IMG/VR virus record: IMGVR_UViG_3300006752_000009
Source of the DNA: a virus
Taxonomy: Duplodnaviria; Caudoviricetes
Length of the DNA: 64,000 nt
Direction: 5' to 3' (one strand)
Shown here: one piece after another, positions 5,906 to 57,508 of the stretch
Position numbering within the stretch: the stretch's first letter is position 1
Layout: every line of letters begins with the position of its first letter
Position numbers and translations under genes: made by a program
Notes under the pieces: model-generated
What the model was told of the DNA's origin: nothing
The model's input: the letters and a program-made list of their open reading frames with translations, nothing else
Database searches by the model: none

Positions 5906-6778
5906 CTTTTAGATCCCATTACAGCTCATAAAATAGCTATTTCTTTACTAAAAAGACCTTTTCCGTACCCGAAAATCTTCGACCCACATAAGGTCTTTGG
6001 GTTAGAATTCCCAAACCGATTAGGTATTAGTGCTGGCTTCGATAAAGACGCTGTTGCTTTGAGGGGTCTAAAATCCTTTGGCTTCGGTCATGTAGAGGTC
6101 GGCACAGTGACTCTTGCTATGCAGAGAGGGCATAACCCTCAGTACATAGAGAGACAACCTAACGCTCTCGTCAACAAGCTAGGACTCCCTAATGTCGGAG
6201 TAAATCAGATGGTTCGGAACATCAAAAGATACCGACCTAAAGGATTAGTTCTTGGAGGCTCTATCGCTTATGGGGATATGGGAAATCCAAGCTATTGTCT
6301 CACCGAGATATATGAGACATTTGTCCGCTTGCGTAAGAGTGTAGATTACATCGTTCTAAATGGATCTTGCCCAAATGTAGAGACACCAGAGAACATCTAT
6401 AAATGCTTAAACCTTATAGAGCATACCGATACACCTGTTCTTGTTAAGCTCCACATCATGGAGGACAAGATGAAGTTGAAGTCCACTCTAAGTGTTCTCA
6501 AGGAGAGTGGAGTTAAGGGGGTAATCTGTAGCAACACCTTACCTACAGCCAAAGGGGGGTTGTCGGGCAAGCCTCTTACACATATAGGGCATCAGCAGTT
6601 AGAGTGGGTTAAAGAGAATAGCGACTATCCTGTGATTTCTAGTGGGGGTGTGATGACTCCTCAAGATGCTGTTGATCGTATTCGACTTGGAGCAGACTTA
6701 GTTCAAGTGTACACAGGGTTTGTGTACGGTGGGATTACCTTCCCTTATCGAGTGGCTAAGGCGATGAGGGGTTTGTAG
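5897..6778 (+). CDS. pyrD: Dihydroorotate dehydrogenase (class 2, quinone type)
   Basis: GLEFPNRLGISAGFDKDA, GFGHVEVGTVT, NGSCPNV, GGLSGKPL, SSGGV, ADLVQVYTGFVYGG. Confidence 0.92.
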   Translation: MLHLLDPITAHKIAISLLKRPFPYPKIFDPHKVFGLEFPNRLGISAGFDKDAVALRGLKSFGFGHVEVGTVTLAMQRGHNPQYIERQPNALVNKLGLPNVGVNQMVRNIKRYRPKGLVLGGSIAYGDMGNPSYCLTEIYETFVRLRKSVDYIVLNGSCPNVETPENIYKCLNLIEHTDTPVLVKLHIMEDKMKLKSTLSVLKESGVKGVICSNTLPTAKGGLSGKPLTHIGHQQLEWVKENSDYPVISSGGVMTPQDAVDRIRLGADLVQVYTGFVYGGITFPYRVAKAMRGL

Positions 6779-6898
6779 TTCGTTTATAGCCACTCATAAG
6801 TGATCTCTTTAACCCTAGACCCGAATGGAGAACCTGTAATGAGAAGATCAGCTAGTGAAATAATCAGAAATCTTGAGATGAGGGTTGCTCGCCTTGAA
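6776..6898 (+). promoter_or_regulatory. Leader cassette A: class I motif TAGTTCGTTTAT + conserved 5'UTR ATAAGTGATCTCTTTAACC...AATGGAGAA + MRRSASEIIRNLEMRVARLE codons
   Basis: Aligns with six other copies in the window. Confidence 0.85.
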
Positions 6899-7657
6899 AA
6901 GTCAGCGGCAAAGTACAATCCAAATGACACCTTTGAGATTGAGGAAGGCAAAGGATATATTCGTTTCTACCTTGGTGGAAAATTCAACACGAGAGAAATG
7001 TCTGGAGACATCAAGAGTGTTTTCTTTAAAGAATTTTATCTTTCCTTTATTGATGAGAACTCACTTCCAGAATATGGTGTGGTCGGAGAATGTCTTGAAG
7101 ATGCTTTTGATAAAACAAAGATGGTTGAAGAATTAAGTCGCACTCGTAAAGGTGAAAAAGCTATTCAAGTCAACCTCTTCAAAAAGGATGAGTTCGTCAA
7201 AAACTTTATTGAAGAGCTTGAGAGCGACATGGAAGGTCTTGAAATGTATGACCAAGAATACATTCTTGATTGGTCTGATGCGTATGAAGCAGAAAAAGCC
7301 TGCACAGATGGTGTGAAAGCACTCATGGATAAATATGGTAAATTAAGGTCAAATAGGATTGACCCTCGCACTTATCGCCTAGCTTCTACTCGTAAAGTTG
7401 CAGGACACATCCTCCTCGCAGGCACTGTAAGTGTTCGTCAGCTTAGGAGGGATCTTGAGGACACCTTCGGCATTGAGGACATCGAGGTTGAAGACGGTGT
7501 TGTTACTTTCCTTATGTCATCAATGGACAATAAAGAGGTAGAGAAACAGGTTAAATCTCTCGCTCAAAAGCATGATGTGAAGTTTGAAAAGGGAGAGTTT
7601 ACCGATGGTCTTGGGATGATCTACACCAAGCGAGCTTCACGCAGAAATCGCTATTAA
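6839..7657 (+). CDS. Leader-bearing hypothetical protein A (acidic; putative internal virion/cargo protein)
   Basis: Start reassigned to ATG 6839 (GGAG SD); begins with MRRSAS leader; internal RLAS/KVAG and C-terminal KRAS motifs. Confidence 0.75.
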   Translation: MRRSASEIIRNLEMRVARLEKSAAKYNPNDTFEIEEGKGYIRFYLGGKFNTREMSGDIKSVFFKEFYLSFIDENSLPEYGVVGECLEDAFDKTKMVEELSRTRKGEKAIQVNLFKKDEFVKNFIEELESDMEGLEMYDQEYILDWSDAYEAEKACTDGVKALMDKYGKLRSNRIDPRTYRLASTRKVAGHILLAGTVSVRQLRRDLEDTFGIEDIEVEDGVVTFLMSSMDNKEVEKQVKSLAQKHDVKFEKGEFTDGLGMIYTKRASRRNRY

Positions 7658-8031
7658 ACACCAACAGTGATCTTGAGGGTATTTGAACCCTCAACTGTCA
7701 CTTGGTGGACACGCTTCCCCCCGACCACATTTAACTGAGTAAACCCTGTGTACTCTAAGAGGCTTACGATAGAGTTTATCTGAATGTGGTCTTGCATTAT
7801 ATATGTTCCATATATACGGATCTGTAGGACATTACCCTCATATAGTGTCTCTACATCTATATTGGTTGGGGGCTGTATGACTACTCTAATCGTTAAGATG
7901 TCTTTGGTACGCTCTACACGAGCTGACTCTACTTTTGAGTAGTCAGCGTCAATACACCCGATCTGAGCGTGTGAGACCAGAGGTGTTAAGAGTAGGCTAA
8001 GTAAGATTACTTTCTTTTTTATATCTAGCAT
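7654..8031 (-). CDS. Hypothetical secreted protein
   Basis: Signal-peptide-like N-terminus MLDIKKKVILLSLLLTPLVSHA. Confidence 0.55.
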   Translation of the reverse strand: MLDIKKKVILLSLLLTPLVSHAQIGCIDADYSKVESARVERTKDILTIRVVIQPPTNIDVETLYEGNVLQIRIYGTYIMQDHIQINSIVSLLEYTGFTQLNVVGGKRVHQVTVEGSNTLKITVGV

Positions 8032-8629
8032 ATCGCTTCCTTACAGAACTCTCTGTTCGATTTAGTTTATTGGCAATGCTCTTATATGACATACCTATTA
8101 AACGACTATTATGGATGAACTTTAATTCTGTCGTTTTCCATTCTTTCTTTAGCTCTAAAGTTAGACCAAGCTCACTTGCTTTTTTTCGACAAGAGTGTGG
8201 TGATCTACCCACTACCTTAGAAATGTTATCCCAAGATAGATGGGGAGAAGGTGGGTTATGGATAGTCTTTTGAACTTGTCGGAGGAGTAGGTCTATCTCA
8301 CCTTCCGACCATAGTCTGTTCTTATGGACTCTTAAACTGACACCTAAACGAGATGCCTTTAGTCTTAAAACCGTTCTTGAGACACCTAGTTTCTTAGCTA
8401 TTGATTTGGGGCTTTGCTGACCTGCCCTACTTTTCAAGAATGTTTCCATCTCTTTTGTCCATGTCTTGTTTTGGTAGATGTTCTTCTTCTTGATCCTTAG
8501 TGTTTGTAATCGAGCCTTAACGCTCCCTACACTTCTCCCAAGCCTTTCAGCTAACTGTTCGCAGGACTCTTGATCGCACCACACCCTAAGCGTAGAGTCC
8601 TCAACATGATCCCATGTTTTTCCACCCAT
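7997..8629 (-). CDS. Myb/SANT-like HTH repeat DNA-binding protein
   Basis: Four W-anchored repeats (TWDHVED, TWTKEME, LWSEGEI, EWKTTEL) each followed by IAxxLGRSxxSV-like helices. Confidence 0.7.
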   Translation of the reverse strand: MGGKTWDHVEDSTLRVWCDQESCEQLAERLGRSVGSVKARLQTLRIKKKNIYQNKTWTKEMETFLKSRAGQQSPKSIAKKLGVSRTVLRLKASRLGVSLRVHKNRLWSEGEIDLLLRQVQKTIHNPPSPHLSWDNISKVVGRSPHSCRKKASELGLTLELKKEWKTTELKFIHNSRLIGMSYKSIANKLNRTESSVRKRYARYKKESNLT

Positions 8630-14799: not shown

Positions 14800-15366
14800 T
14801 TATACACCGTCTATAGGATGCCGAAAGTCGTATTCTTTTAGCATCTCATATTCCATAAAGGCCATGATGATCTTCACGACATCACCATGAGTCCAAGAAA
14901 TGCCCTCATTAGATTCTACAGGGTCTAACTCGGTTTCTTCATCGGGAGGTGGGATGTTGGTGATGATCTTTGCTTTTATTGTTTTCTTGCTTTGAGCGAG
15001 AGCTTTTACTGTTCTGTGAGTGCCATCAATGATCTCACCATCCCATATTAGAATGGGGTATGATAGGTCGGCCTCTAAGCAACGCTCGATATGTTCCGAA
15101 GGGTGTGTTTGACCCCAATACCAATCTTCTTGAAACGAGGCAGGTATTTCCCAATCGACAGGCTCTAAAGACTCAACTTCGAGCCATAACTTCTCTATAT
15201 CCCAAGCGTACCTTATATCTCCAATAACTGTACTGAACTGCTGACCCATATCTTCTTTATATCCTATGAGATCTAATGCTTTGTCTCCATAAATAGTTAC
15301 GGGCTTCGGCATGATTAAAAAGTTGTAAACATATACGCTTATGATACCGAGAAGATATGAGAACAT
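14800..15366 (-). CDS. ParB/Srx-like N-terminal domain protein
   Basis: ADLSYPILIWDGEIIDGTHRTVKA. Confidence 0.65.
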   Translation of the reverse strand: MFSYLLGIISVYVYNFLIMPKPVTIYGDKALDLIGYKEDMGQQFSTVIGDIRYAWDIEKLWLEVESLEPVDWEIPASFQEDWYWGQTHPSEHIERCLEADLSYPILIWDGEIIDGTHRTVKALAQSKKTIKAKIITNIPPPDEETELDPVESNEGISWTHGDVVKIIMAFMEYEMLKEYDFRHPIDGV

Positions 15367-15368
15367 AA

Positions 15369-16802
15369 TCAGACCCTTATTTTGTAGTGTTTGATGAGAT
15401 CTTCCCTAATCTTAGTCACATAAGCATCATCGCAGGTTTCATTGATAAGTGCGTTTCTTAGATTTCTAAGGTACTTAACTACTCTATCGTCCTCGTGATT
15501 TTTACTAAGCTCTTTTAAAAGTGCAGGATGATCCCATTCACCTGTGTATTTCTTGCTCTCTTCATTTGTAAGATAAACGACACATAAGACTCCATAAGGT
15601 GCATTTTTGTCTGAGTAGACTCGCATAACCCTTCTTATGTATGTGTTTTCTTCGTTAGATCTGTCATGCTTGTATCCCTCTCGTTCATCCAATGTCTTTA
15701 GGACTTTTTCAAGGGACTCTACAGGGTACTCAAGCACTAAACCTTGCATAGACCCACCTGGTTTAGTGCCTATGATTAAGTGTCCATGTCTATTTTCGGA
15801 CATGACATTGAAAGACCTAGAGATTGAGTTAATATGACCTTTCCAACTGTTCGTGATCAGATCTTCGTGTTCTGGTTCGCTCATAAGCGTTCCGTAAGCA
15901 AAGACCCTAAATACTTTTTCATTCGGGGGAGGTGCTTCTACCACTTCCTCTTTGACTTCAATCTCTTCAATGACGACTTTGTTTTCCTTGTTCGAGGTGA
16001 CTCGTTTTACTTCGAGCTTGCATCGTGAAGGCTTCTTGAAGTGTTTTTCATACCCAACGAACTCGGAGTCTTGATCGACTAAGTACATAGTCATCGTTCG
16101 TGTTTTTGCATCGAACAGGAACTGATTTGATGTAAACATACCATCTGGTACTTTACGGACAACATTGTTAGGGTTTGGTACATCTTTGAGTCTAAGAGCA
16201 AAGAGCTTTTTGATGATGTCCTCTGATTTCTTGGGTTTGCTTTCAAGGACTCCCATCATGGTTTCATATCGTGTTTCGGAGGACTCACGATCATCACCAG
16301 AGACATATCCTGCATCTGAGTAGTAGATCCCATGATTTGTACGAACAAAGTTCTTTTCAAGGATCTCATCTACTTTAGCATCATGTTTTGAGGTTTGTTC
16401 TATAACGAAAGCGTGTCTCTCGTCCGAGATCATTGTATGTCCTTTAACACCGGTCTTGAGGTGTGTGAGGATATGCAATGCTTGTAGGAGAGAAGTACAT
16501 TCTAAAGCTGATATGATCCGATGGGCATCTTGAGAAAATCGTATTGCTTTAGATTTCTTTTTTGTACCCTCTTTTTCATCTTCGAGAACCATTAGAGCCG
16601 CGTTAGAGACAACAATCCCATGCTCGTTAATGCCTTCGACCCAACCTGTACGCTCATCTTTGAAATACAGGATTTCAACTCCATTGTCAGAGATGATGTG
16701 GTGGACTCGAATGTCGGGGATATAGTTTCTGTCTCTATTTTTAAAGACCCACTTTTTATCGCCAATATGGGTGATAGCGATTACACAGGATTGCTTTATC
16801 AT
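15369..16802 (-). CDS. Ntn-hydrolase (C45/NAAA-like) domain fused to ChaC/GGCT-like gamma-glutamylcyclotransferase domain
   Basis: N-terminal SCVIA...FKNRDRNY...GINEHGI, VRTNHG; C-terminal VFAYGTLM...LDEREGY...YLRNL. Confidence 0.65.
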   Translation of the reverse strand: MIKQSCVIAITHIGDKKWVFKNRDRNYIPDIRVHHIISDNGVEILYFKDERTGWVEGINEHGIVVSNAALMVLEDEKEGTKKKSKAIRFSQDAHRIISALECTSLLQALHILTHLKTGVKGHTMISDERHAFVIEQTSKHDAKVDEILEKNFVRTNHGIYYSDAGYVSGDDRESSETRYETMMGVLESKPKKSEDIIKKLFALRLKDVPNPNNVVRKVPDGMFTSNQFLFDAKTRTMTMYLVDQDSEFVGYEKHFKKPSRCKLEVKRVTSNKENKVVIEEIEVKEEVVEAPPPNEKVFRVFAYGTLMSEPEHEDLITNSWKGHINSISRSFNVMSENRHGHLIIGTKPGGSMQGLVLEYPVESLEKVLKTLDEREGYKHDRSNEENTYIRRVMRVYSDKNAPYGVLCVVYLTNEESKKYTGEWDHPALLKELSKNHEDDRVVKYLRNLRNALINETCDDAYVTKIREDLIKHYKIRV

Positions 16803-18295: not shown

Positions 18296-18307
18296 ATAAA
18301 TAAACTA
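18296..18307 (-). promoter_or_regulatory. Class I repeated motif TAGTTTATTTAT
   Basis: About 35 nt upstream of the 18260 start; back-to-back with a class II copy. Confidence 0.7.
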
Positions 18308-41541: not shown

Positions 41542-41612
41542 GGCAGTTAGCTCAATCGGTAGAGCAGTAGACTTTAATCTATTGGTTCTGAGTTCGAGTT
41601 CCAGACGACCCA
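41542..41612 (+). pseudogene. tRNA-Lys-derived pseudogene (6-nt anticodon loop, mismatched acceptor and T stems)
   Basis: Flanks resemble those of tRNA-Lys 38243; 5' end gggcagttagc matches tRNA-Met 42539. Confidence 0.7.
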
Positions 41613-41646
41613 CTCTGTAAATGCTCTTATATGATTGGAGACAATA

Positions 41647-41958
41647 ATGAGCCTAGAACGCAAAGAGCTTCAGAAGCATCTCTTTTGCAATACTCAGTAC
41701 GAGACTGTTGGACTATTCTTTTTCGATTTGATCCATCAGTATCAAGGGGATAAGGCAGGGTCTATTCTTGAATGGACAGTCTGTACACTTGCCGACACCG
41801 GCTATGTGAGAAAGGGTATGCTCACACATCTCAAGAAGCTCTTAAAGGATGAGTCTTTATCTGACCAAGATCGGGAGTATGCTGAGATTGTCTATAAGAG
41901 CGTAGACGACTACGACTTTGGTCTACAGCGAACCCCTAAAAACTGGATGCAGAGATAA
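41647..41958 (+). CDS. Paralog family X, copy 3
   Basis: TQYETVGLFF...EWTV...DREYAEIV...DFGLQRTPKNW. Confidence 0.65.
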   Translation: MSLERKELQKHLFCNTQYETVGLFFFDLIHQYQGDKAGSILEWTVCTLADTGYVRKGMLTHLKKLLKDESLSDQDREYAEIVYKSVDDYDFGLQRTPKNWMQR

Positions 41959-41962
41959 GATC

Positions 41963-42313
41963 TTATCTTGCAGTTCTGAATGTGTTAATGGCACTTCTTT
42001 GGGAGTTAGCGATTTCAAGCACATCACAACTGAAGCTATTAGGCTCGTCCATTTCGCATTTGACAACTGCGAAGATACCTGGGAGTAAGTTGCCAACTTC
42101 CACAAGGAAAATACTGCTTCCGGTAACAGACTTAGAGTCGATAACTCTAATGTCAGATTCATCAAATCCAAGATCCATCTCTTCATAAATCTCATCAAGG
42201 AGCAGGGTTTCGGCTTCAAAGGGCATCGAACTTGCCTTCTTCATGGTTGATCTTTCAAGCCGAGCGATCCTACGCTCAAGGTTACGAATGATTTCACTTG
42301 CTGATCTTCTCAT
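41963..42313 (-). CDS. Leader-bearing hypothetical protein D
   Basis: MRRSASEIIRNLERRIARLE; paralog of C. Confidence 0.75.
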   Translation of the reverse strand: MRRSASEIIRNLERRIARLERSTMKKASSMPFEAETLLLDEIYEEMDLGFDESDIRVIDSKSVTGSSIFLVEVGNLLPGIFAVVKCEMDEPNSFSCDVLEIANSQRSAINTFRTAR

Positions 42314-42373
42314 AATGGTTCTCCATTGGTTAAGGTTAAAGAGATCACTTATTGATAGGGTATAAATAAACTA
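42254..42373 (-). promoter_or_regulatory. Leader cassette D
   Basis: TAGTTTATTTAT + conserved UTR + leader codons. Confidence 0.85.
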
Positions 42374-42380
42374 CAAATCA

Positions 42381-42408
42381 TCTGAGTTCGAGTTCCAGAC
42401 GACCCACT
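42381..42408 (+). pseudogene. tRNA 3'-half fragment
   Basis: 28 nt identical to 41587-41614. Confidence 0.75.
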
Positions 42409-42451
42409 ATACATCTTGGTGGTGATACTTTGTGTGGTATCATTACCACAC

Positions 42452-42533
42452 GCCTAGATGGTGGAATTGGTAGACACAGGAGACTTAAAATCTCCCGACT
42501 TCGGTCGTGTGGGTTCGATCCCCACTCTAGGCA
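42452..42533 (+). tRNA. trnL: tRNA-Leu(TAA)
   Basis: ggaga-ctTAAaa-tctcc; variable arm cgacttcggtcg. Confidence 0.92.
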
Positions 42534-42538
42534 TATAA

Positions 42539-42612
42539 GGGCAGTTAGCCAAGTTGGTCAAGGCATCCGTCTCATAAACGGAAGATCCTGGGTTCAATCC
42601 CCAGACTGCCCA
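42539..42612 (+). tRNA. tRNA-Met/Ile2 (CAT anticodon)
   Basis: tccgt-ctCATaa-acgga; elongator Met vs lysidine-Ile cannot be settled from sequence. Confidence 0.88.
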
Positions 42613-42884: not shown

Positions 42885-43892
42885 TTACCTTCTCTCTGCT
42901 CTGTAGACTGCATTGATCAAGGCACGAGCGATTACACGATCCTTTTCTTTCTCACCCTCAGATAAAGAGCGATAAGATGCGTCTGCAAGTGCGATACGAT
43001 TTGCCTTTTTTTCGGGCTGTGTTTGATAACGAGGGTCATCAACATTGTATGCCGCATAACTCCAACCATCGTGAACAGCATCAGCCACGATTTCTACGAC
43101 TTTCTTGTCTTTCGGGTTTGACAATACAGTTTCGAGATTGTCCATAATTGCATCAAGAGCATAGAGACTTGAATACTTGTTTGCTTTTCTCCCAAAGCTT
43201 CCAGGTGTACTCAAACCATATCCGTACTCTTTATCTAGGGCTTTGTCCGAAATGTGGGTCGCTCTTTTGATGTCCACAAGGCTTCGGTTCTGAGGAGGTT
43301 TAGGGATAGACCGAGCATATTTGTTACGACTTGCGAACTTCTTTCCATAAAACTTTTCATTCGCCCATTCAATAGCAGATCTAAAGTTCCTACCCATTAC
43401 TACTTTTGAAACTTTTCCGTCCTCTGTAGTTACAACAGTACCAGCAATCCCATTAAGTTCGTCTTTGTAGCCAAGATAAATTCTATCTTTAACAAGAATA
43501 AAAGGAAACTCATAGGGGCTTCCTTCTAGCGTGAAAGATACTTTTCCCTCTCCCTCAGCCTTTAGAGGCCATGAAGCAGGCTCATCGGGGTTTGCTTTGC
43601 CATAAGGGTTAATGAACTCGCCAACAATTCTTGATGATGGCTCAAAACTCACCTTGATGCCTCTTGCTCCTTCGCTTTTAAGTGCTCTTTCGATCTGCTT
43701 ATTAAAGGTGCGACCTAAAAGGCGATCAAATAAAGAAGTTGCTTTCAACTTGTTCTTGCGATCATCAACAGGAAAGTAGCCTCCTGGAGAATGCTCTCCT
43801 CTTGTTACAACTTTATATCCAGATGCTTGCTTCTCAAGCCGAGCTAGTCTCATCTCAAGATTTCTGATTACTTCTGATGCTGATCTTCTCAT
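42885..43892 (-). CDS. Leader-bearing hypothetical protein E (multi-segment)
   Basis: MRRSASEVIRNLEMRLARLEKQAS; internal KKFASRNKYARS; C-terminal DAVHDGW...EKEKDR resembles the RyR-repeat-like HxxW motif (tentative). Confidence 0.7.
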   Translation of the reverse strand: MRRSASEVIRNLEMRLARLEKQASGYKVVTRGEHSPGGYFPVDDRKNKLKATSLFDRLLGRTFNKQIERALKSEGARGIKVSFEPSSRIVGEFINPYGKANPDEPASWPLKAEGEGKVSFTLEGSPYEFPFILVKDRIYLGYKDELNGIAGTVVTTEDGKVSKVVMGRNFRSAIEWANEKFYGKKFASRNKYARSIPKPPQNRSLVDIKRATHISDKALDKEYGYGLSTPGSFGRKANKYSSLYALDAIMDNLETVLSNPKDKKVVEIVADAVHDGWSYAAYNVDDPRYQTQPEKKANRIALADASYRSLSEGEKEKDRVIARALINAVYRAERR

Positions 43893-43954
43893 GGTTTATT
43901 CTCCATTAGGTTTGAGGTTAATGAGATCACTTATGAGAAGCTATAAATAAACTA
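43833..43954 (-). promoter_or_regulatory. Leader cassette E
   Basis: 60 of 62 nt (43831-43892) identical to cassette G (57385-57446). Confidence 0.85.
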
Positions 43955-44227
43955 TTAAATACATACGAGATTGAAGGTTGGTAGCTCTTCGTCTTTGGGA
44001 ATGGGGAGGTAGGGGATCACCACTTTGTCTTCGTATAATCTCCAGGGATCGTCAGAGAGTAAGATTTCTAATGGGTCATTTGAAGGTTTGATTTCAAATT
44101 TACATAGTGGTGTTGAGTAGGCTTTAACTGTCTTACAGTCCAAAGAGTCACATGGCAACTTCTGTGGGTTTATACCACAGGATGCGAGGGCGAGATTTAA
44201 AATTGAAAAGGCAATAATTTTTTGCAT
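43955..44227 (-). CDS. Putative lipoprotein
   Basis: Lipobox LALASC; class I variant TAGTTCCTTTAT at 44273-44284. Confidence 0.6.
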   Translation of the reverse strand: MQKIIAFSILNLALASCGINPQKLPCDSLDCKTVKAYSTPLCKFEIKPSNDPLEILLSDDPWRLYEDKVVIPYLPIPKDEELPTFNLVCI

Positions 44228-44286
44228 GACATTTCCTTTATTGTAGTATCTACTGTTTACACAGAATAGATTATAAAGGAACTACA

Positions 44287-46776: not shown

Positions 46777-47256
46777 CTATTTTTTATTTTTGCGAGCTTC
46801 CTCACAGTTGAAAGAACCACCATTACCGTCTGGACAGGTGGTGCGATCTTTGTGCTTCTTATTGCTCACAAACTCATCATAGAGTTCGTTATACTCTTTC
46901 TTTTTAGCTTTGTTCTTCCACCATTTAGGTCCTAGTTTCTCGACCATTTCACCGTATTCGTGGTGGAGTCTATAGCAAGTACCACCACCTGGATTATCTT
47001 GTCCACCACCATCTTCATTATAGCAGTTTGTATTTCCAAAAGCCCACTCTTGTGAATAGTCGTAATTCTTCTTGGGGTCGAGAGGGTCATATTGACGAGC
47101 CGCTTCAAGTTCATCAGCCATTACCATCCCTGCGTCAATGTCAGCTTGGAGTTCAGCTAAGAACGGATCTGCATAACGATTTGATGATGACTGGTTTTCG
47201 AGGCGAGCAACACGAGCTTCAAGCTCACGAATAACTTCTGATGCTAATCTTTTCAT
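46777..47256 (-). CDS. Leader-variant protein H (MKRLASEVIRELEARVARLE)
   Basis: Start reassigned (AAGGAG SD); peptide matches leader but 5'UTR does not; class I variant at 47297-47308. Confidence 0.7.
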   Translation of the reverse strand: MKRLASEVIRELEARVARLENQSSSNRYADPFLAELQADIDAGMVMADELEAARQYDPLDPKKNYDYSQEWAFGNTNCYNEDGGGQDNPGGGTCYRLHHEYGEMVEKLGPKWWKNKAKKKEYNELYDEFVSNKKHKDRTTCPDGNGGSFNCEEARKNKK

Positions 47257-47308
47257 AGCGATCTCCTTTGTGAATATGAACACAATAAGATTAGCTATAA
47301 ATAATTTA

Positions 47309-49936: not shown

Positions 49937-50014
49937 TGTCTTTCTCCTTAATAGTTAGGGTTCACCTATATATGGGTGAAATATAAATAGACTATTAAAG
50001 AGTCGGACTACTAT

Positions 50015-50743
50015 TTAACCTCTATTGACGACAGAACACCGAATAGTGAACAAAGGTGTACCTGTTTGACCTGCTAAGAAGAATTCTCCTACAGCACCCG
50101 ATGTTAAAGTCAATGACTCTCCTGGCCTCAAGATCGAGGGCGACATACCTGGATTAAATGAGATAAAAAGGTTAGATCCACCTTGAGGGTTATCTAGGTT
50201 TTGGATGTTGAGGGTCTGACTGAAGCTAGGGAGGTGAAAGTTTATTGATCCTGTGCTAAGAACATCTGGAATGCCATTACCTGTATCTAAATTCGGAGCG
50301 TTCCCGATAGTCGTGAAGATCGGTGCTGTTAGTGAGAAGAAATCGTAAGGAACTACACCCACTACTGGCCCAAAGTCTGTGGTTTCTTGTGTAGCACGAA
50401 CTCGACCTCTGACTCTCAGATAGAGCATTTGATCATCCGTTGGCACACGAGGTGTGTTTGGTTTGAATGTAGTTGAATACTCATTGGGGTTGAATAAAAA
50501 CCGAGTTTGATCTCTCTGCGACTCTTCAACACCTAGTTTTGCCTGTGTGATGAACTTGCTTCTAAAAGTCTTATCATAAGGTACAGAAAACATCTCAACA
50601 GGGTTGTTGTGTGCGTCATTGAGGTTAGAAGCACCAAACACAGTAATTTGATCCATACCTCTAAGATTTGCGTTGTGTACTACCATATCTATAAGACCTT
50701 TTGATCTATAGATAAGGCTTGGGATTAAGCGACCTCTACTCAT
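50015..50743 (-). CDS. Hypothetical, probable structural protein
   Basis: 242 aa adjacent to the triplet. Confidence 0.45.
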   Translation of the reverse strand: MSRGRLIPSLIYRSKGLIDMVVHNANLRGMDQITVFGASNLNDAHNNPVEMFSVPYDKTFRSKFITQAKLGVEESQRDQTRFLFNPNEYSTTFKPNTPRVPTDDQMLYLRVRGRVRATQETTDFGPVVGVVPYDFFSLTAPIFTTIGNAPNLDTGNGIPDVLSTGSINFHLPSFSQTLNIQNLDNPQGGSNLFISFNPGMSPSILRPGESLTLTSGAVGEFFLAGQTGTPLFTIRCSVVNRG

Positions 50744-51144
50744 TTCTTACTCTCTTTCTCTTTAGTTATATGGGGTTCATATGACTCGGTGTTCTTACCT
50801 TTAGACTTAGCAAGTTTTTGAGCGTCAGCCCAAGAGTCAACTCGTTCACCATCTACATTGGGAGCAAGGGCTACATTGGGAGCATCACGCTTCATCTCGT
50901 TTGTCCGAGCGTCTAGCCTCTTGTTTTTTTCACGCATCTGATTCTTGATGCGATGGTTCTTACCTGCCCATCCATCTCCTTTGAGTATGAAATTAGTAGT
51001 GGGTCTAAAAACTTTTTTGTGTTCATCACCACACTCTGGACAAGGTTGTGGGATGTCATGGTTATCCATAGATAATCGACAACTGTATTCCTCATCGAAT
51101 TTTTTGCAGTCTTTGTTTCTGCAAAGGTAGGTGTAAAAAGGCAT
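50740..51144 (-). CDS. FmdB-family zinc-ribbon protein
   Basis: MPFYTYLC...C...CPECG...FILKGDGWAG; start reassigned. Confidence 0.8.
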   Translation of the reverse strand: MPFYTYLCRNKDCKKFDEEYSCRLSMDNHDIPQPCPECGDEHKKVFRPTTNFILKGDGWAGKNHRIKNQMREKNKRLDARTNEMKRDAPNVALAPNVDGERVDSWADAQKLAKSKGKNTESYEPHITKEKESKK

Positions 51145-51149
51145 AATAG

Positions 51150-51524
51150 TTAAGCTCCAAAGAAATCTCTTAAGACCGCATAGGCGTGTTTGCATATCTT
51201 GTGCGTACCATTAGGGTCTTTCTTAGTGGGTTGTTCTGCTGTACCTCTCACTTTACCGAACAAGTAGTCGTTTTGGACTGCGTGATACTCTGGCCCTTGA
51301 TACTGCCAATAGTTGCAAGTGCAAGTAAGGTGGAGATCGGGGTCTGATCTATCACCTTTAGCTTCAACAGTAACTACATAATCACCTACCTCAAACTCGA
51401 TAGGCTCTTTAAGTACCTTTTCTTCAAAGCCATTTACGACAGCTTTGATTGAAGAAGCGTTCGACTTAACTTTTGAGTCGAGTCCGTTTGTAATTTGATT
51501 AAGATATGCTGATGATCTACGCAT
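51150..51524 (-). CDS. SWIM-type zinc-finger protein
   Basis: LTCTCNYW...ICKHAYAV; starts MRRSSA; class I variant upstream. Confidence 0.7.
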   Translation of the reverse strand: MRRSSAYLNQITNGLDSKVKSNASSIKAVVNGFEEKVLKEPIEFEVGDYVVTVEAKGDRSDPDLHLTCTCNYWQYQGPEYHAVQNDYLFGKVRGTAEQPTKKDPNGTHKICKHAYAVLRDFFGA

Positions 51525-51576
51525 GATGTCTAGCCTCTCTATTGTTGCTAAGAGAGGCTAGATCATAAATAGATTA

Positions 51577-51876
51577 TTACTTAATAGCGATAAACTTAAC
51601 CTTGTCTCCAACTCGTTCCATCTTGAAGTTTCCAGGAAACTTGAATGTCTTACCTTTAAGGTCAACCAGAGCCACCTCTGTGATTGTCTCCTCCACAATC
51701 GCAGATCCTTCTGGAAGTACCTCTTGCTTTAATGAGAAATCTTTAACTTTGTTCTTGAAGTTAAACTCACCCCAAACAAGGTTCTCTTGTTCTACTAGGG
51801 GCTTTCTCTCCCATTCTTTAGGGGTAGGGTTGAGAATCGCATCTACCATGTCTTTTATTTTAACCTCATCACTCAT
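51577..51876 (-). CDS. Hypothetical protein
   Basis: 99 aa, AAGGAG SD. Confidence 0.55.
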   Translation of the reverse strand: MSDEVKIKDMVDAILNPTPKEWERKPLVEQENLVWGEFNFKNKVKDFSLKQEVLPEGSAIVEETITEVALVDLKGKTFKFPGNFKMERVGDKVKFIAIK

Positions 51877-51967
51877 GTTAAGTCTCCTTTTATTCGTGTG
51901 TTGCCATCATACCATGTCACCCCTTAGTTATTTACTTACTGAGATTAACCTTAACTAAGGAGAAAGT

Positions 51968-52237
51968 ATGAATCTGAAAAAACAACTTGATGATGTCATC
52001 GTTCGCACTATGCGACCTCGTAAGGGTCAACTGATCCTCGTCAATGTGTTCTATGGGAGTAAAGATGATTTTACCCCCGATATGCCGACCTGTGAAAAGT
52101 TCGAGTTAGATTGGGTTGACCCCGATCTCTACAAGGAAGGGATGGTCTTTGACGCTCTGCTCTATGATGTCTTTGATGGTGGAAACGACAAAGAGCTTAA
52201 TGACTCAAGACGCTTCACCATAGATGACCTCAACTAA
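51968..52237 (+). CDS. Small acidic hypothetical protein
   Basis: 89 aa; UTR ttaaccttaactaaggagaa resembles cassette UTR. Confidence 0.55.
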   Translation: MNLKKQLDDVIVRTMRPRKGQLILVNVFYGSKDDFTPDMPTCEKFELDWVDPDLYKEGMVFDALLYDVFDGGNDKELNDSRRFTIDDLN

Positions 52238-52241
52238 GAAC

Positions 52242-52670
52242 TTAGAAGCGAATGTAAAGTCCTGTACCCTCTTCAAAGCGATCTTTGATGTCCTCTGCAT
52301 AGACATCGTTGAACTCTTTAACAACCTTTACGCTACGACCATGAGTACGAATGAACTCCATGTCATATAAGTCCATGCCATTAAGAGTAATGCGTACTCG
52401 GTTCACTGCACCAGCGTGTTTTGGTTTTGGGAATACAAGGGTGACACCCAAAGGCTCATTGATAAGTTGTTTGAGTCCAATGAACATCTGCAACTTGCGT
52501 CCTCCACCGAGCTGTTGGACGATGGTAGCCGCAATCGCATTGGCACTCTTACTCTCTTGTGCTTGTCTTTTGCAAGTACAATGTGAGCAACCACAACCAC
52601 TAGACTGCTTCTCTAGTCGTGCGACCCTGTTCTCTAGGTTTCTTAGCATTTCACTAGCTGATCTTCTCAT
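52242..52670 (-). CDS. Leader-bearing hypothetical protein F
   Basis: MRRSASEMLRNLENRVARLE; body ATIVQQLGG...VRITLNGMDLYDMEF...DVYAEDI resembles a widespread small phage protein family. Confidence 0.75.
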   Translation of the reverse strand: MRRSASEMLRNLENRVARLEKQSSGCGCSHCTCKRQAQESKSANAIAATIVQQLGGGRKLQMFIGLKQLINEPLGVTLVFPKPKHAGAVNRVRITLNGMDLYDMEFIRTHGRSVKVVKEFNDVYAEDIKDRFEEGTGLYIRF

Positions 52671-52730
52671 AAGGTTCTCCATTTGGTTAAGGTTAAAGAG
52701 ATTACCTATGGAGAACCGATAAAGAGACTA
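52611..52730 (-). promoter_or_regulatory. Leader cassette F
   Basis: TAGTCTCTTTAT + ATAGGTAATCTCTTTAACCTTAACCAAATGGAGAA. Confidence 0.85.
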
Positions 52731-52734
52731 CAAA

Positions 52735-53736
52735 TTAATCCTCGTCATACTCTTGTTGAGCGAGGATTAACATACCCTTAGAGACAGCATGGAGTGGATC
52801 AGAAGCATGACGAACCTCTGAAATCTCAATAGGGAAACGCTTACGCTTAGTCTCAAAGACCTCTCTAAAGAAATCCATGAACCCACCTGCTAGACTTGTG
52901 CCACCACCCACTACGATTGGAATGGGCTTGTTAAGGGTGAGGTGTCCACCTTTCATCACAAACTGTTGTGCGATGTTATCCAAAGCGTGTTCAATAAGAG
53001 CCTTATAATAGAACGAGATCGCTTCTTCTTCTCTATTCTTAGGGTCTTTAAGGTTAATGCCTTTCTCTTTAACAGAACACATCTTAGAGGCTGTAGCACC
53101 TACAGAGCGAGACGCACCTTGATCAATCCAATCACCCCCACGAGCAACTGAGAATGAAAGACCCTCAATGGTGTTGATAGCGAGGGCAATGTTGGTCATA
53201 CCCGAACCAAAAGAGATGCCGATACCACTAAATCCTTCTTTAGATGTTTCGGCAAAGACAATAGCCATAGCTTCGTTAGCTGGATGAGCTGTATAACCAC
53301 ATTCTTGAACGATGCGTGTAAAGACACCCTTGTGATAAACAACATCCATGTTAGCGTCTACAGGAGCGGCAGGGATTGAGAAATAACAATGCTCTCCCTC
53401 ATGGCTTGGTTCACCGAGTACATCTTTAACCATGTGTCCAAGAACAGTAAGGGAGTCGATCTCATCGGCAGAAATCAGACCTGCTTTTAGAGGTCTACGA
53501 CCTTCACGACCAAACATATTGGCAACTTCCATAGCCTCATCACCGAGTACAAGAAGGTTATCATCAGCTTCGATGTAAGAAACCGATCCGAGTTTGAGCA
53601 TCTTTTTTGCTGATTGTGGGAGGTCGATAAATAGATCACGCATTCTTCTAAGAGTGACCTCGTTTTTCTTAGCACCACTCATACGAGCGGAGACTAAGTT
53701 CATAGTTCCAATGTCAAGTCCTACACCTTTACTCAT
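52735..53736 (-). CDS. Actin-fold ATPase (MreB/FtsA/ParM-like)
   Basis: Phosphate-1 GLDIGT, connect-1 NEAMAI, phosphate-2 SFGSGMTN, adenosine VGGGTS, connect-2 AVSKG. Confidence 0.85.
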   Translation of the reverse strand: MSKGVGLDIGTMNLVSARMSGAKKNEVTLRRMRDLFIDLPQSAKKMLKLGSVSYIEADDNLLVLGDEAMEVANMFGREGRRPLKAGLISADEIDSLTVLGHMVKDVLGEPSHEGEHCYFSIPAAPVDANMDVVYHKGVFTRIVQECGYTAHPANEAMAIVFAETSKEGFSGIGISFGSGMTNIALAINTIEGLSFSVARGGDWIDQGASRSVGATASKMCSVKEKGINLKDPKNREEEAISFYYKALIEHALDNIAQQFVMKGGHLTLNKPIPIVVGGGTSLAGGFMDFFREVFETKRKRFPIEISEVRHASDPLHAVSKGMLILAQQEYDED

Positions 53737-54374
53737 TGTTTATTTGCCTTTCTTAATGCTTTCAAAGCAGAGAGTGCGTCCGAGAGTTCATCAGAACCCT
53801 CTGATTTTGTTTCATTCGCCAAAGACTCTGAGGAGGCTATGGTCTTATTAGAGATAATGTTGGATGGGATAAAGGTCAATCCTTCATCTGCTGTTGTGTT
53901 CATATTACCCATAGATGATGTAGTTTGAGCGTTATTATTTACCACCACTTGTTGTGCTGGCATCTGTTTGGCGACAGCTTCGGCTATAGCTTCGGGAGAA
54001 ATCATAGTGCCGAGCTGTTGGATGAGGACATTAGCAAGAGCGTTCATATCGAGCTGAGGTTGCTCTGCTTGTTTCTCTATGATGACCTCTTTTTCAACTT
54101 CAACAATCTTCTCAACCACTACAGGTTTTTCAACAACCTCTTTAACTACCTTTGACTCCCTAACTATTTGAAACCTATTGCTGTGTACTCCTAGTCGAGA
54201 GGGAGGACGATTGCTTTTAATCTTGAGGGCGATCACTCCTGTGTTGACTAGAAACTTCAGTTCTGAGTTTGAGTCGTACTGAGCTTTCGTACAATCAAAG
54301 GTCTGACCTTGTTTGAGTTTGAGTCGGAGGCTCTTAACCTCTATATCTTTAAGACACTGTGCTACATATATCAT
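53733..54374 (-). CDS. Hypothetical protein (VKEVVEK repeats, coiled-coil), coupled to the actin-like gene
   Basis: 213 aa, 4-nt overlap with 53736. Confidence 0.6.
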   Translation of the reverse strand: MIYVAQCLKDIEVKSLRLKLKQGQTFDCTKAQYDSNSELKFLVNTGVIALKIKSNRPPSRLGVHSNRFQIVRESKVVKEVVEKPVVVEKIVEVEKEVIIEKQAEQPQLDMNALANVLIQQLGTMISPEAIAEAVAKQMPAQQVVVNNNAQTTSSMGNMNTTADEGLTFIPSNIISNKTIASSESLANETKSEGSDELSDALSALKALRKANKQ

Positions 54375-54943
54375 GGTTCGCCTTTGCTCATACTTTTAGT
54401 AAGAAAGAAAGTTGCCCTTCGTATGGCTTTCATTCTACCCTTCTCAATCCCTTGCTCAATAAAGTTAAACTTATAGACGGCTGGATGTATCCATTTGTTT
54501 TCCGTTTTAAGGGGGAGATTTCTAAACACGACCTCGCCTGTCTTGGTCTTAATCGGTACGACTTTCTTCTCCATGTTGGATTTACGAGTAAGCCAATTCA
54601 TTTCATAGGGTTCTTTGCGTTCAAGATACTTCTTAACCCACTGCCAATCAGACTTGAGTTTGATTGCTCCACCTTTAGTGATTTCGTAGTAGAACGAATC
54701 TAAGAACTCTTTGGTGCGAGGTATACCTGTACCCAGACCTGCCGCTTTCTTAGCTGACTCTTTAACTGCCTTGACTATTTCTTCACCAAAGATTTCTAAG
54801 ACCTTTTTCGATATGTCTTTGCCTCTTAGGTCTACATTCTGAAACTGATTTTTACGCACTCTGTAAGTACGGAGATCCCAAGGTCGATTTGGATCTCTGT
54901 TTTTGGGTGGGTTTCTTCTTGCTCGTCTTGGGTCAAACTTCAT
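54371..54943 (-). CDS. Basic hypothetical protein, possibly virion morphogenesis
   Basis: Start reassigned to MKFDP (GAGGAGG SD). Confidence 0.55.
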   Translation of the reverse strand: MKFDPRRARRNPPKNRDPNRPWDLRTYRVRKNQFQNVDLRGKDISKKVLEIFGEEIVKAVKESAKKAAGLGTGIPRTKEFLDSFYYEITKGGAIKLKSDWQWVKKYLERKEPYEMNWLTRKSNMEKKVVPIKTKTGEVVFRNLPLKTENKWIHPAVYKFNFIEQGIEKGRMKAIRRATFFLTKSMSKGEP

Positions 54944-55018
54944 ATCTATGCCTCCTCTATTGAGGTTTTGATAAACAAAGTACAAAGCTCAATAGTTTTT
55001 TTATGATTGGTGGATAGT

Positions 55019-55159
55019 GATTGTATCCCCTGTTCCCGATATGTGTATCTCCCATTGGGAGTCCGAAGAAGAAGGGTGTCAGGACATATTGGGGGCAGAA
55101 CTCCTTTGATCTGTTTGGTTTTCACCCTTTCTCAAACAGTTAGGAAACAGGAGGCAATC
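55019..55159 (+). ncRNA. Candidate structured RNA with loop-loop complementarity
   Basis: Nested stems and AAGGGTG/CACCCTT loop pairing; follows class I variant TAGTTTTTTTAT. Confidence 0.5.
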
Positions 55160-55183
55160 GCTTGCTCACACAAGGATTTTTTC

Positions 55184-55471
55184 ATGTCAGATAAAGAACC
55201 AGAAGTAGACCCCATAGAGATTGAGGTCAACCTCTTAAATGAGTTGATCGAGGACAACATTATCATAGTTATTCATCGGAACGGTATGTCTATCATGATG
55301 AATGAGGATGAAGATGATAGATCTCAAGAACAGATGAGGTTATTTTCTCGCCTCTATGTAGCGGCTAACCCTAGCTTTGTTCTTCGGGTGTTTCTGATCT
55401 TAGAGGTGTTTTTGCTCTTAGTTTGGGAGACTTTAGCCGATTTCTACGACTCAAAGATCAAGAAACCGTAA
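55184..55471 (+). CDS. Hypothetical membrane protein
   Basis: Start reassigned to MSDKEP (AAGGA SD). Confidence 0.5.
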   Translation: MSDKEPEVDPIEIEVNLLNELIEDNIIIVIHRNGMSIMMNEDEDDRSQEQMRLFSRLYVAANPSFVLRVFLILEVFLLLVWETLADFYDSKIKKP

Positions 55472-56042
55472 AGTACCCTCTAGTTGGATTGTGGACAGAC
55501 CCGAACTCACTCAGCCGAGACATGAATCTATCTTGGATGGCTACTAAGTATTCCTCAAGTGTCTCAAAGCCATCTTCTCTGCCCCATTCTTCATAGTTTT
55601 CAACAGGGTAGATACTGATTTCAGTCATGCCAGAATACTCAGTGCTTTTTTCTTTAAATGCAGAAACCTCTACACCAAGAACGGAGTGGTGAAGCCAACC
55701 TCGCCCCCTTCGGTTAGATCTGATACCAGAAGCGTGTAGGATGATTTCTTCTTTGGTGTTCTTTCCAACAATGATGTCTGGAAGCTGAAGCTCTTTTGGT
55801 GTTTTAAGTTCAACGGTTAATCCACTATTAGAGATAAAGATGCCGTGATCCCAACCTAGATTATCAATAAAACTCCCGATCTTTAAAGTAAGATCTTCAA
55901 GTTCTCCCATATCATTAAAGTGAAGCCCACTGAATTGAAGGGAAAGTAAGTCTTTTCTGACATGAGTCGTAAGTGATCTTCCTCCTAGTGAACTAAAAAA
56001 ACTTTTAGCATCTAGTGCTATATCATCGTTGATGTTTTTCAT
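55458..56042 (-). CDS. Hypothetical protein
   Basis: 194 aa, AGGAG SD. Confidence 0.6.
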   Translation of the reverse strand: MKNINDDIALDAKSFFSSLGGRSLTTHVRKDLLSLQFSGLHFNDMGELEDLTLKIGSFIDNLGWDHGIFISNSGLTVELKTPKELQLPDIIVGKNTKEEIILHASGIRSNRRGRGWLHHSVLGVEVSAFKEKSTEYSGMTEISIYPVENYEEWGREDGFETLEEYLVAIQDRFMSRLSEFGSVHNPTRGYFTVS

Positions 56043-56138
56043 ATCTTCTACTCCTTTACGATATGGTGGGTCATAAACGGTCTACAAATTGTATAAGGGT
56101 AGTGTTCACATTAACCTTAACCACAATGGAGGTCGCAC

Positions 56139-56606
56139 ATGAGCGATAAGTGGAAAGCAGGACCAGAAGTCCAAGAGCAGATCAATCATCTCATCGGAAA
56201 CGCACACCCTCATCTCGCAGACATCATGGATGACATCGTAGTCATCTTCAAAGAGAAGTGTTCAAGGAAGGGTGGTCGCCCTATTCTCGGTAAGACATCT
56301 AAAGCACCTGGTATTCTTTCAGTTCTTGGAGATCACGCATACGAGTTCGTCATTGAGCTTGGTGCAGACTGTTGGAACAATCTCAATGAGGCACAGCGTT
56401 TAGCTCTCCTCGATCATCTTCTCTGCTTCATTGGTGGTGAGGAGGACGAGAAGTCGGGTGAGATGAAGTATTTCCTCTCTACTCCCGATGTCTTTTACTT
56501 CTCAGAAGAGGTAGAGCGTAATGGTAGCTGGCGTGAGGACATGATGCCCGATGGTGTACCCGAAGAAGAAGGCTCAGACGCACCTTTGTTAGACCCTATC
56601 GGATAA
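56139..56606 (+). CDS. Phage metallopeptidase-like family protein with degenerate HExxH
   Basis: FVIEL..DCW..L..AQRLALLDHLLCFI...PDVFYF. Confidence 0.6.
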   Translation: MSDKWKAGPEVQEQINHLIGNAHPHLADIMDDIVVIFKEKCSRKGGRPILGKTSKAPGILSVLGDHAYEFVIELGADCWNNLNEAQRLALLDHLLCFIGGEEDEKSGEMKYFLSTPDVFYFSEEVERNGSWREDMMPDGVPEEEGSDAPLLDPIG

Positions 56607-56616
56607 GGAGCTTCAC

Positions 56617-57096
56617 ATGAAATACAGACGCATGGAATATGTTGACGGACGAGAGCAAATGATCGTTGCTACAAAGGAAGAGATTGATCGTGAAGCAGGG
56701 CTTCTTCCAGGTCATAACGCTTTCAATGCTGATTTCATTTTAGATGGTTGGGAGGAGTTCTCTGACGAGACATTCAACAACTACCAACAGGCAACAGCAC
56801 AGACTGCCAAGTACCCACCCGACCAAGCTCTTGAGTACCTTTCACTTGGTATTGCAAGTGAAGCAGGTGAGGTCGCAGGTAAGATGAAGAAGTGGATTCG
56901 TGATGGAGACAGCAAGATGACTCGTGAAGAGTGGGTTCAAGCTATGTCATCAGAAATCGGTGATGTGCTTTGGTACTCCGCTCGCCTAGCTGATGAGCTT
57001 GGTCTAAGCCTCTCACAGATTGCAGAGGACAATATGGATAAGCTCTTAGACCGTAAGGCGAGGGGTGTTATCGGAGGTAGTGGAGATAACCGTTAG
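56617..57096 (+). CDS. mazG: MazG-like nucleoside triphosphate pyrophosphohydrolase
   Basis: LGIASEAGEVAGKMKK...SEIGDVLWY...NMDKL. Confidence 0.85.
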   Translation: MKYRRMEYVDGREQMIVATKEEIDREAGLLPGHNAFNADFILDGWEEFSDETFNNYQQATAQTAKYPPDQALEYLSLGIASEAGEVAGKMKKWIRDGDSKMTREEWVQAMSSEIGDVLWYSARLADELGLSLSQIAEDNMDKLLDRKARGVIGGSGDNR

Positions 57097-57446
57097 GCTT
57101 TAGACTCAATAAGCGTGTATGTCTTAGAGAGGTCAGCAAGACAACTTTTTAAGTCTGCACCCTTATCAAAGATGACTTGAGTCGCAACCATAGGGTTAGA
57201 ACCTGTACCGATAGAACCCCTCTGAGTAATTGCAGTTCCCATGTTCATTCTACAAAAGCCCTCGATGTTTTTCAGTTCTGATTTAGGGCAGAATACTTGC
57301 AGTGAAACATCGGAGCTGAAATCTTCATCATAGGAAATTTCTACAAAGACAGGGTTTTTGACTTTCGTGGTTGAGGCTGATCGGTTCTCAAGCCGAGCTA
57401 GTCTCATCTCAAGATTTCTGATTGTTTCTGATGCTGATCTTCTCAT
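57093..57446 (-). CDS. Leader-bearing hypothetical protein G
   Basis: MRRSASETIRNLEMRLARLE. Confidence 0.75.
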   Translation of the reverse strand: MRRSASETIRNLEMRLARLENRSASTTKVKNPVFVEISYDEDFSSDVSLQVFCPKSELKNIEGFCRMNMGTAITQRGSIGTGSNPMVATQVIFDKGADLKSCLADLSKTYTLIESKA

Positions 57447-57508
57447 AGGGAGTTCTCCATTTGGTTTGTAGTTAATGAGATCACTTATTGGTGGGTATAA
57501 ATAAACTA
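57387..57508 (-). promoter_or_regulatory. Leader cassette G
   Basis: TAGTTTATTTAT + conserved UTR + leader codons. Confidence 0.85.

Follow-up and report, generated by a model that had tools for sequence, protein, structure and literature searches.

The window analysed here is a stretch of 64,000 nucleotides, IMG/VR virus record IMGVR_UViG_3300006752_000009 (Duplodnaviria; Caudoviricetes), in which a recurrent cassette joins a promoter box, a 5' untranslated region (5'UTR) and a short leader peptide to open reading frames (ORFs) of differing content, here called cargos. The DNA comes from an uncultured marine huge phage; a 347,814-bp contig carries the window's own protein, and the window encodes a tail sheath of 1616 residues, a lysozyme-type protein and ten tRNAs. 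No close match to the window was found among 50,697 phage records. The sheath of the window shares 38% identity with the sheath of LR745208.1, an uncultured phage of 485 kb, and 30% with its counterpart in Tunturi_5, a cultured phage of Tunturiibacter. The window's DNA was matched in sequencing runs from marine metagenomes only, and no RNA-seq run was found among the runs containing it. For whole-genome comparison, we used a relative, G001, a 375,691-bp IMG/VR contig rated 100% complete; the window is collinear with positions 134-204 kb of this genome, and the core proteins are 80-97% identical. The cassettes of the window are as follows.

6776-7657, plus strand: cassette A; box 6776-6787, UTR core 6796-6814, leader codons 6839-6910, coding sequence 6839-7657 (272 residues).
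33079-33568, plus strand: cassette B; box 33079-33090, UTR from 33099, coding sequence 33140-33568 (142 residues).
41131-41517, minus strand: cassette C; box 41506-41517, coding sequence 41131-41457 (108 residues); a paralogue of D, lying between plus-strand tRNA genes.
41963-42373, minus strand: cassette D; box 42362-42373, coding sequence 41963-42313 (116 residues).
42885-43954, minus strand: cassette E; box 43943-43954, coding sequence 42885-43892 (335 residues).
46777-47308, minus strand: cassette H, a variant; box TAAATTATTTAT at 47297-47308, a different UTR, coding sequence 46777-47256 (159 residues), leader MKRLASEVIRELEARVARLE.
52242-52730, minus strand: cassette F; box 52719-52730, coding sequence 52242-52670 (142 residues); the cargo is a phrog_9437 domain.
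57093-57508, minus strand: cassette G; box 57497-57508, coding sequence 57093-57446 (117 residues).

Seven of these ORFs share a module of about 120 nucleotides, composed of a late-type promoter box, a conserved 5'UTR and the leader, as an earlier sequence-only reading of this DNA had claimed; the starts that it assigned to all eight ORFs were recovered. The UTR core ATAAGTGATCTCWTTAACC occurs seven times in the window with up to three mismatches, compared with 0.02 occurrences expected by chance, and the promoter box TAGTYNNTTTAT has 13 occurrences where chance would give 0.5, seven of the 13 preceding a cassette. In a multiple alignment that took in 160 nucleotides of upstream and 120 nucleotides of downstream flank, the similarity spanned the promoter box to leader codon 20 (..CTTGAR), and the flanks were unrelated on both sides. 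A hidden Markov model of the leader, a check proposed with that reading, was run on all six-frame ORFs of the window and returned exactly the eight ORFs and no others. The eighth (cassette H, starting at 47256 on the minus strand) indeed carries the peptide behind a different UTR, and the cargo bodies are mutually dissimilar by BLASTP with the exception of the C and D pair (44% identity).

The leader takes the form MRRSASEIIRNLEMRIARLE-[KR]xA[SG]. It had been described as a peptide of 20 residues; the leader is present, but the conserved peptide actually reaches approximately residue 24, opening with R-S-A-S and closing with [KR]-x-[AS]-[SG], so that the motif stands on both sides. The peptide is amphipathic, with a heptad pattern I3-L6-I10-L13, and is predicted to be a helix. 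Among the seven copies, peptide identity is 86%, and 40% of 333 same-residue codon pairs differ, for example at Ser6 (AGT/TCA) and at Arg10, Arg15 and Arg18 (AGA/CGT/AGG/CGG/CGC/CGA). The UTR is conserved as nucleotides, its core blocks ATAAGTGATCTC and ATGGAGAA being 95-100% identical, and codons 1-3 (ATG AGA AGA) are nucleotide-invariant in the seven cassettes. Therefore, the peptide and the UTR are each conserved separately, as the sequence-only reading had held on both counts.

This synonymous-site pattern bears directly on the idea that the module is kept mainly as a DNA or RNA element, namely a promoter, a translation start and a recombination patch, with the peptide as a by-product. Such an explanation can draw on the nucleotide conservation of the UTR cores and codons 1-3, on the recombination breakpoints inside the module that are given below, and on a pairing between the 5' end of the mRNA and the start codon. 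The conserved UTR block begins 8-9 nucleotides past the box, near the expected transcript start, and the first eight nucleotides of the predicted mRNA (UCAUAAGU) could base-pair with the start-codon region (ACUUAUGA). In register, the mean is 5.3 of eight pairs, compared with 2.2-4.2 in shifted registers, and a few changes are compensatory, for example AUAGG with CCUAU. This pairing is suggestive only. On the other hand, codons 4-20 are synonymously variable with their residues kept, the peptide persists in the eighth ORF and in many G001 copies in which the UTR differs or is missing, and internal copies of the leader, which have neither promoter nor UTR, still keep it. The explanation is thus largely refuted, and we regard it as very improbable. 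Within the seven cassettes, in the stretch from about nine nucleotides after the box to codon 4, UGAUCU can also pair with codons 3-4 (AGAUCA), and either pairing might serve translation control. A strong conserved hairpin at the 5' end was considered as well and was rejected, as the minimum-free-energy folds were no more stable than those of shuffled sequences (mean z -0.24).

Comparison with G001 showed that the module is a discrete, portable unit, as had been proposed, with cargos swapped between near-identical genomes and homology breaking twice exactly at the end of the leader. Five of the eight window cargos have no homologue in G001, though their flanks are 80-97% identical; among these cassettes, C and D have no cargo homologue there. 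Cassette B lies inside a 585-nucleotide segment (33000-33584) that is absent from G001, the blastn blocks stopping at 32999 and resuming at 33585, and the segment 42804-44027, which holds cassette E, takes the place of an unrelated 592-nucleotide segment. For cassette G, homology to G001 197314-197862 covers the upstream gene, the promoter, the UTR and the leader, and the cargos differ; the breakpoint is at 57385, approximately 60 nucleotides into the coding sequence. For cassette F, homology breaks at 52610, which is the leader end; in the G001 orthologue, an additional domain separates the leader from the phrog_9437 domain, and half a leader (VARLERQAN) stands before the latter. The cargo of cassette H is 43-47% identical to that of its positional orthologue at G001 185540, compared with 75-95% for the flanking proteins. 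The cargo of cassette A is a two-module mosaic joined at the linker RLAS-TR-KVAG: its N-terminal part is 49% identical to the body of the G001 leader gene at 145303, and its last 92 residues are 91% identical to the end of the next G001 leader gene, at 145958. Conversely, G001 has leader genes at sites that are empty in the window, for example 195282-195608. The exchange events mapped in this way comprise insertion, replacement and fusion of cassettes, and the genes lie in hypervariable loci between conserved genes, as do those of the T4 internal proteins.

If cargos are grafted behind the leader, as the sequence-only reading supposed, leaderless relatives of the cargos should exist, and phrog_9437 fits this prediction. 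The domain occurs free-standing and leaderless, at about 95-117 residues, in KVP40, phiN3, phiM12, RSP15, PA5oct-like phages and LR745208.1, and the KVP40 copy begins right at the domain.

The promoter box places the cassettes in the company of structural genes. In the window, further copies of the box stand without the cassette UTR, as listed here.

25291-25302, plus strand: box heading the operon of a 144-residue gene and the 1616-residue sheath (25775-30625), the whole spanning 25291-30625.
18296-18307, minus strand: box match.
44273-44284, 49983-49994 and 57924-57935, minus strand: box matches.

There are 59 copies of the box in G001. Copies stand at the start of the head operon (encoding proteins of 344 and 1171 residues, the head maturation protease and an acidic scaffold-like protein), of an operon ending in the major capsid protein and of the sheath operon; others precede a homologue of a Tunturi_5 virion protein and approximately 20 leader genes. 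Since the box heads the sheath operon in the window and the head and capsid operons in G001, it can be marked as a structural (late) promoter class. Late expression of the cassettes had been proposed earlier: their use of the box of the head, capsid and sheath operons was borne out, and the timing itself would follow from that company. Among other promoters and signals, neither sigma-70-like sites (19 against 31.9 expected) nor terminator-like sites (13 against 13.1) were enriched.

A candidate for the enzyme acting on the leader is encoded outside the window, at G001 52134-53582, where a protein of 482 residues matches phrog_18299, head maturation protease, with an E value of 4.9e-14. It was found through the PHROGs and through gp331 of Tunturi_5, to which it is homologous; the Pfam S77 and S78 protease models gave no match in G001. 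The gene is flanked on one side by that of a large head protein and on the other by those of the scaffold-like and capsid proteins. The catalytic part of the protease model was superposed on T4 gp21 (5jbl) over 128 of 165 residues with Z 5.1 and a root-mean-square deviation of 3.5 A, a weak structural match given by a model whose predicted local confidence (pLDDT) is 57.

The motif [KR]xA[SG] occurs 208 times in the G001 proteins, compared with 119 occurrences expected from shuffling. Beyond the leaders, the excess is found in the protease (5 against 0.54), the scaffold-like protein (4 against 0.9) and a few others, and an 870-residue repeat protein adjoining the terminase holds nine copies against 1.4 expected. 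Tunturi_5 is leader-free and encodes a homologous protease. Two of its proteins are enriched in the motif, the one annotated as "DNA ejection protein" (8 against 1.6, P 2e-4) and the scaffold-like gp332 (6 against 1.1, P 1e-3); no enrichment was found in the other proteins tested, namely the protease (1 against 0.41) and the capsid, tail, connector and unnamed proteins. Across 36 protease homologues (46-92% identity), R25-x-A27-S is kept, as is K-x-A just after the catalytic domain. These conserved motifs sit in otherwise variable, disordered linkers, where self-processing sites would be expected. His130 and Ser181 of the protease are invariant. The motif, which ends in small residues, recalls the Ala|Ser sites of herpesvirus assemblin, and this is a resemblance only. 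The ARLE-type motif outside the leaders was too rare to inform.

Two further observations concern the same group of G001 proteins. The acidic scaffold-like protein (50555-52096, minus strand), encoded between the protease and capsid genes, contains a canonical calcium-binding EF-hand loop (Pfam EF-hand_5, E value 1e-7) and two copies of ARVARLADNAVQVGT, which resembles the second half of the leader. A second short motif, RVA(S/x)RYMK, is located at the N-termini, C-termini or junctions of nine G001 proteins, often beside [KR]xA[SG] (for example at 15198-16274, 261617-262156 and 53586-57101, all on the minus strand), and none was seen in the window.

The leader had been taken for an address label. 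It is shared by diverse cargos, as that description demands, but in relatives it is not strictly N-terminal, because full and half copies lie between the domains of polyprotein-like proteins. An example is the family of cargo E, a protein that begins with the leader helix and a disordered linker; an alpha/beta domain comes next, and a linker (..ASRNKYARSIPKPP..) connects it to a helical domain resembling RyR repeats. In its AlphaFold2 (AF2) model, the leader forms a separate helix (residues 5-24), and approximately 30 disordered residues lie between it and the alpha/beta domain; a second disordered stretch leads to the helical domain, which is modelled with confidence. A Foldseek search of the PDB returned no significant match for cargo E, the best probability being 0.72 for a bacterial RyR repeat (6uhi); this weak match and a sub-threshold Pfam RyR match are the only hints at the fold of the helical domain, and the ESM Atlas search gave no usable match. 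Among the relatives of cargo E, the conserved helical C-terminal domain is joined to at least six different N-terminal parts. Some junctions hold the full leader minus its Met (..DKSASGLIRNLENRIARLEKTPRTAG.., ..RRTRRASDVINDLENRIARLERRSS..), others hold a half leader (..RFARLEKSSG..) or KxAS plus KYARSIPRPP, and two relatives are without any leader. Similarly, one relative of cassette A has a new domain between two KVAG linker copies, two G001 ORFs carry the full leader internally, at residues 303 and 167, and an extra internal half leader is present in 12 of the 149 top representatives of the profile search described below.

We lean towards the view, by analogy, that the leader is a counterpart of the T4 capsid-targeting sequence (CTS), which would load the cargo into the head and be cut out by the head protease. 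Under this CTS-like reading, the late (virion-class) promoter and the conserved 5'UTR would drive strong late synthesis, and the 24-residue amphipathic helix, with two [KR]-x-A-[S/G] sites at its ends, would dock the attached protein into the core of the assembling prohead. The gp21-like head maturation protease would then excise the helix and leave free cargo in the capsid. Long proteins with full or half leaders between their domains could be polyproteins, loaded by one tag and then cut apart. In addition, because the module of about 120 nucleotides is repeated approximately 30 times per genome, it may also act as a recombination homology patch, by which cargo genes would be inserted, replaced, fused and split.

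The leader may instead be a peptide unrelated to the capsid, such as an oligomerising coiled coil, a tag for another virion part or a cell site, or a chaperone, kinase or degradation tag. The amphipathic heptad pattern and the predicted helix would suit such a role, and the RRxS-like sequences resemble basophilic kinase sites, with a kinase-like protein encoded at 38332-39414. A complex prediction, suggested with the sequence-only reading, was run for the G001 capsid protein, the scaffold-like protein and a 108-residue leader protein, and its score of 0.00 with a partner pLDDT of 32 speaks neither for nor against binding. However, the motif often ends in Gly, which is not phosphorylatable; the proteins in which the flanking motif accumulates are of the protease, scaffold-like and ejection types and not tail proteins; and the recurrence between domains suits a processing site better than an oligomerisation domain. 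We therefore consider a role unrelated to the capsid unlikely.

The spread of the leader in other genomes was examined by exact UTR-word and profile searches. In IMG/VR, the UTR-word search, which carried out the proposed scan of relatives, gave 40 loci, 38 of which had box, UTR and leader with varied cargos. G001 has 31 leader ORFs, and a 107-kb fragment of another relative has approximately 13 (15 matches). A leader profile of 32 columns, built from 35 leaders, was searched against 1.84 billion representative proteins and matched 1,111 clusters at E values up to 0.001 and 143 at up to 1e-10. Among the best 149 representatives, the leader stands at residue 1 in 143, the median length is 136 residues, and the cargos fall into 123 unrelated similarity groups. 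A word-indexed search with the leader region returned only five proteins, because the region is too short for such a search, and tblastn of a 26-residue leader against the 50,697 phage records gave no match. In Pfam scans, one WGR domain was found among the best 149 representatives, and the 39 leader proteins of G001 and the window likewise yielded one; the PHROG scans of the cargos were almost empty and added little beyond Pfam. About one third of the cargos of the leader representatives are basic (isoelectric point above 9), and about half are acidic.

These properties bear on a further explanation, in which the cargos are head-internal structural or DNA-condensing proteins that are packaged with a shared propeptide and are not injected effectors, their diversity reflecting relaxed constraint on filler. 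It rests on the same evidence of head association as the CTS-like reading, namely the motif, the promoter box and Tunturi_5; the cargos are small (median 136 residues), a third of them basic like the DNA-binding T4 internal proteins (PMC3012670), and about 30 leader genes per genome stand under strong late signals. Such a role nevertheless fits poorly with the acidic half of the cargos, with well-folded, conserved and independently shuffled domains (WGR, RyR-like and phrog_9437, the last widespread as a free-standing domain), and with a presence/absence turnover between near-identical genomes that is like that of accessory or arms-race genes. We consider it improbable that the cargos are structural or DNA-condensing proteins of this kind.

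A broader form of the CTS-like reading, which we hold only tentatively and with less confidence than its core, is that the leader and the bracketing [KR]xA|[S/G] sites may form a sequence-readable code for the complete set of proteins that are packaged in the head, released by the protease and probably injected in a widespread clade of marine huge phages. This proteome would comprise more than 1000 unrelated families, including polyproteins cut into several effectors, and the DNA of the tag would double as a recombination site for shuffling the arsenal.

The precedent invoked in the sequence-only reading, a shared N-terminal packaging signal on the T4 internal proteins, is real (PMC3012670, PMC12373910, PMC2839356). 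The T-even internal proteins have only this signal in common, are injected and inhibit type IV restriction enzymes, and their genes lie in hyperplastic loci with their own repeated regulatory elements (same sources). As with the T4 CTS on IPI-III and Alt (PMC3012670, PMC12373910), a short N-terminal peptide is common to unrelated small proteins in the present phages; likewise, a gp21-type head protease is encoded in G001 (structurally a weak match), the genes are numerous, turn over quickly and occupy variable loci flanked by conserved genes, and the tag is proposed to be cleavable.

Several differences from T4 are equally clear. The T4 CTS has about 10 residues, whereas the leader has 24, forms a predicted basic amphipathic helix and has [KR]xA[SG] on both sides. 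T4 has three such genes at two loci, with more than 30 variants across T-even phages, whereas here approximately 30 copies are dispersed genome-wide. Unlike the T4 tag, the leader also occurs at inter-domain positions and is accompanied by a conserved 5'UTR under a late box, and the phage itself is not T4-like, its capsid protein belonging to phrog_2522 and its sheath having 1616 residues. The leader end ..A-R-L-E puts Leu at P2, not P3, and in the internal x-L-E sites P3 is Asn or Arg. Judged by sequence, the leader is unrelated to the T4 tag and would not be assigned to the T4 family. If the head-loading signal is true, the T4 trick of one address for many cargos would have arisen independently, with another peptide, another cleavage motif and a far larger scale.

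The module also resembles the PeSL cassettes and IP-locus elements of T4-type phages (PMC2839356, citing Repoila 1994), in which a repeated regulatory sequence of about 100 nucleotides stands before ORFans and acts as a homology patch for gene insertion, deletion and replacement between close relatives. A PeSL combines an early promoter of the sigma-70 type with a terminator stem-loop and does not code for a peptide (PMC2839356). The module differs from them in combining a late-type box, TAGTTTATTTAT, common to structural operons, with a UTR and 60-72 coding bases, in showing no excess of terminator-like hairpins, and in having its crossovers at the coding end of the leader.

In phiKZ and SPN3US, whose giant virions carry large protein cargo, a gp21-like prohead protease likewise processes many head-internal proteins at a short motif (PMC5694885, PMC7411985, PMC10052503). 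Their propeptides differ for each protein, unlike the single portable leader described here. The cleavage motif of this type is a small residue, any residue and Glu, and only A5-S6-E7, nearly invariant at the start of the leader, would fit it. A likeness also exists to the MuF polymorphic toxins of temperate phages, in which a constant head-associated N-terminal part precedes C-terminal cargo exchanged by recombination. The leader proteins differ from these toxins in having as their constant part a peptide of 24 residues rather than a folded domain; immunity genes were not seen as partners, and no MuF domain was found in Pfam scans of the 8, 149 and 39 leader proteins.

Several points weigh against the CTS-like reading. 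The structural match of the protease to gp21 is weak, as given above, and the leader shows no sequence similarity to the T4 CTS and lacks the terminal (L/I)-x-E. The motif enrichment could mirror a linker preference rather than a cleavage site, and the position of the scissile bond is a guess, with A-S-E at residues 5-7 or L-E at residues 19-20 as alternatives. The leader-profile search of LR745208.1 and Tunturi_5 found no leader, and both have a homologous protease; the leader is therefore specific to a narrower clade. No cultured member of that clade, RNA run or proteome was found, and the Pfam and PHROG scans assigned a function to almost no cargo.

If the leader is indeed a head-loading signal, the packaged and injected proteins of uncultured, abundant marine huge phages could be listed from sequence alone. 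Such a list, with approximately 30 proteins in each genome and over 1,000 families, almost all of them without an assigned function, would then be a defined pool in which to search for anti-defence and host-takeover proteins. The tag could also find use in loading foreign proteins into large capsids. The breakpoints mapped here provide a concrete case of modular exchange via coding sequence in phage genomes.

Some minor observations were made on the surrounding genes. The genes immediately upstream of cassettes E and G (43955-44227 and 57509-57883, both on the minus strand) encode mutually unrelated small lipoproteins with lipoboxes LASC and LVAC; each has its own late box and ends exactly 62 nucleotides before the leader ATG. 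The sheath (25775-30625, plus strand) is 79% identical to that of G001, and only the last approximately 330 of its 1616 residues match ordinary sheath families. Amid the otherwise conserved stretch, two additional variable spots were noted: the kinase-like protein at 38332-39414 (plus strand, phrog_18508), whose G001 counterpart is absent, and a 659-residue HNH/D5-like protein at 20884-22863 (plus strand), just 32% identical to its positional counterpart in G001. In G001, a terminase-like ORF of 1361 residues (3255-7340, minus strand) is apparently split by intein-like or homing-endonuclease-like insertions, as judged by eye from the sequence. The tRNA cluster at 34089-42612 has ten genes, including a long one called Pyl with anticodon CTA (34900-34998) and one at 41541-41613 with an unreadable anticodon loop, and cassettes C and D are placed between the tRNA genes on the opposite strand.

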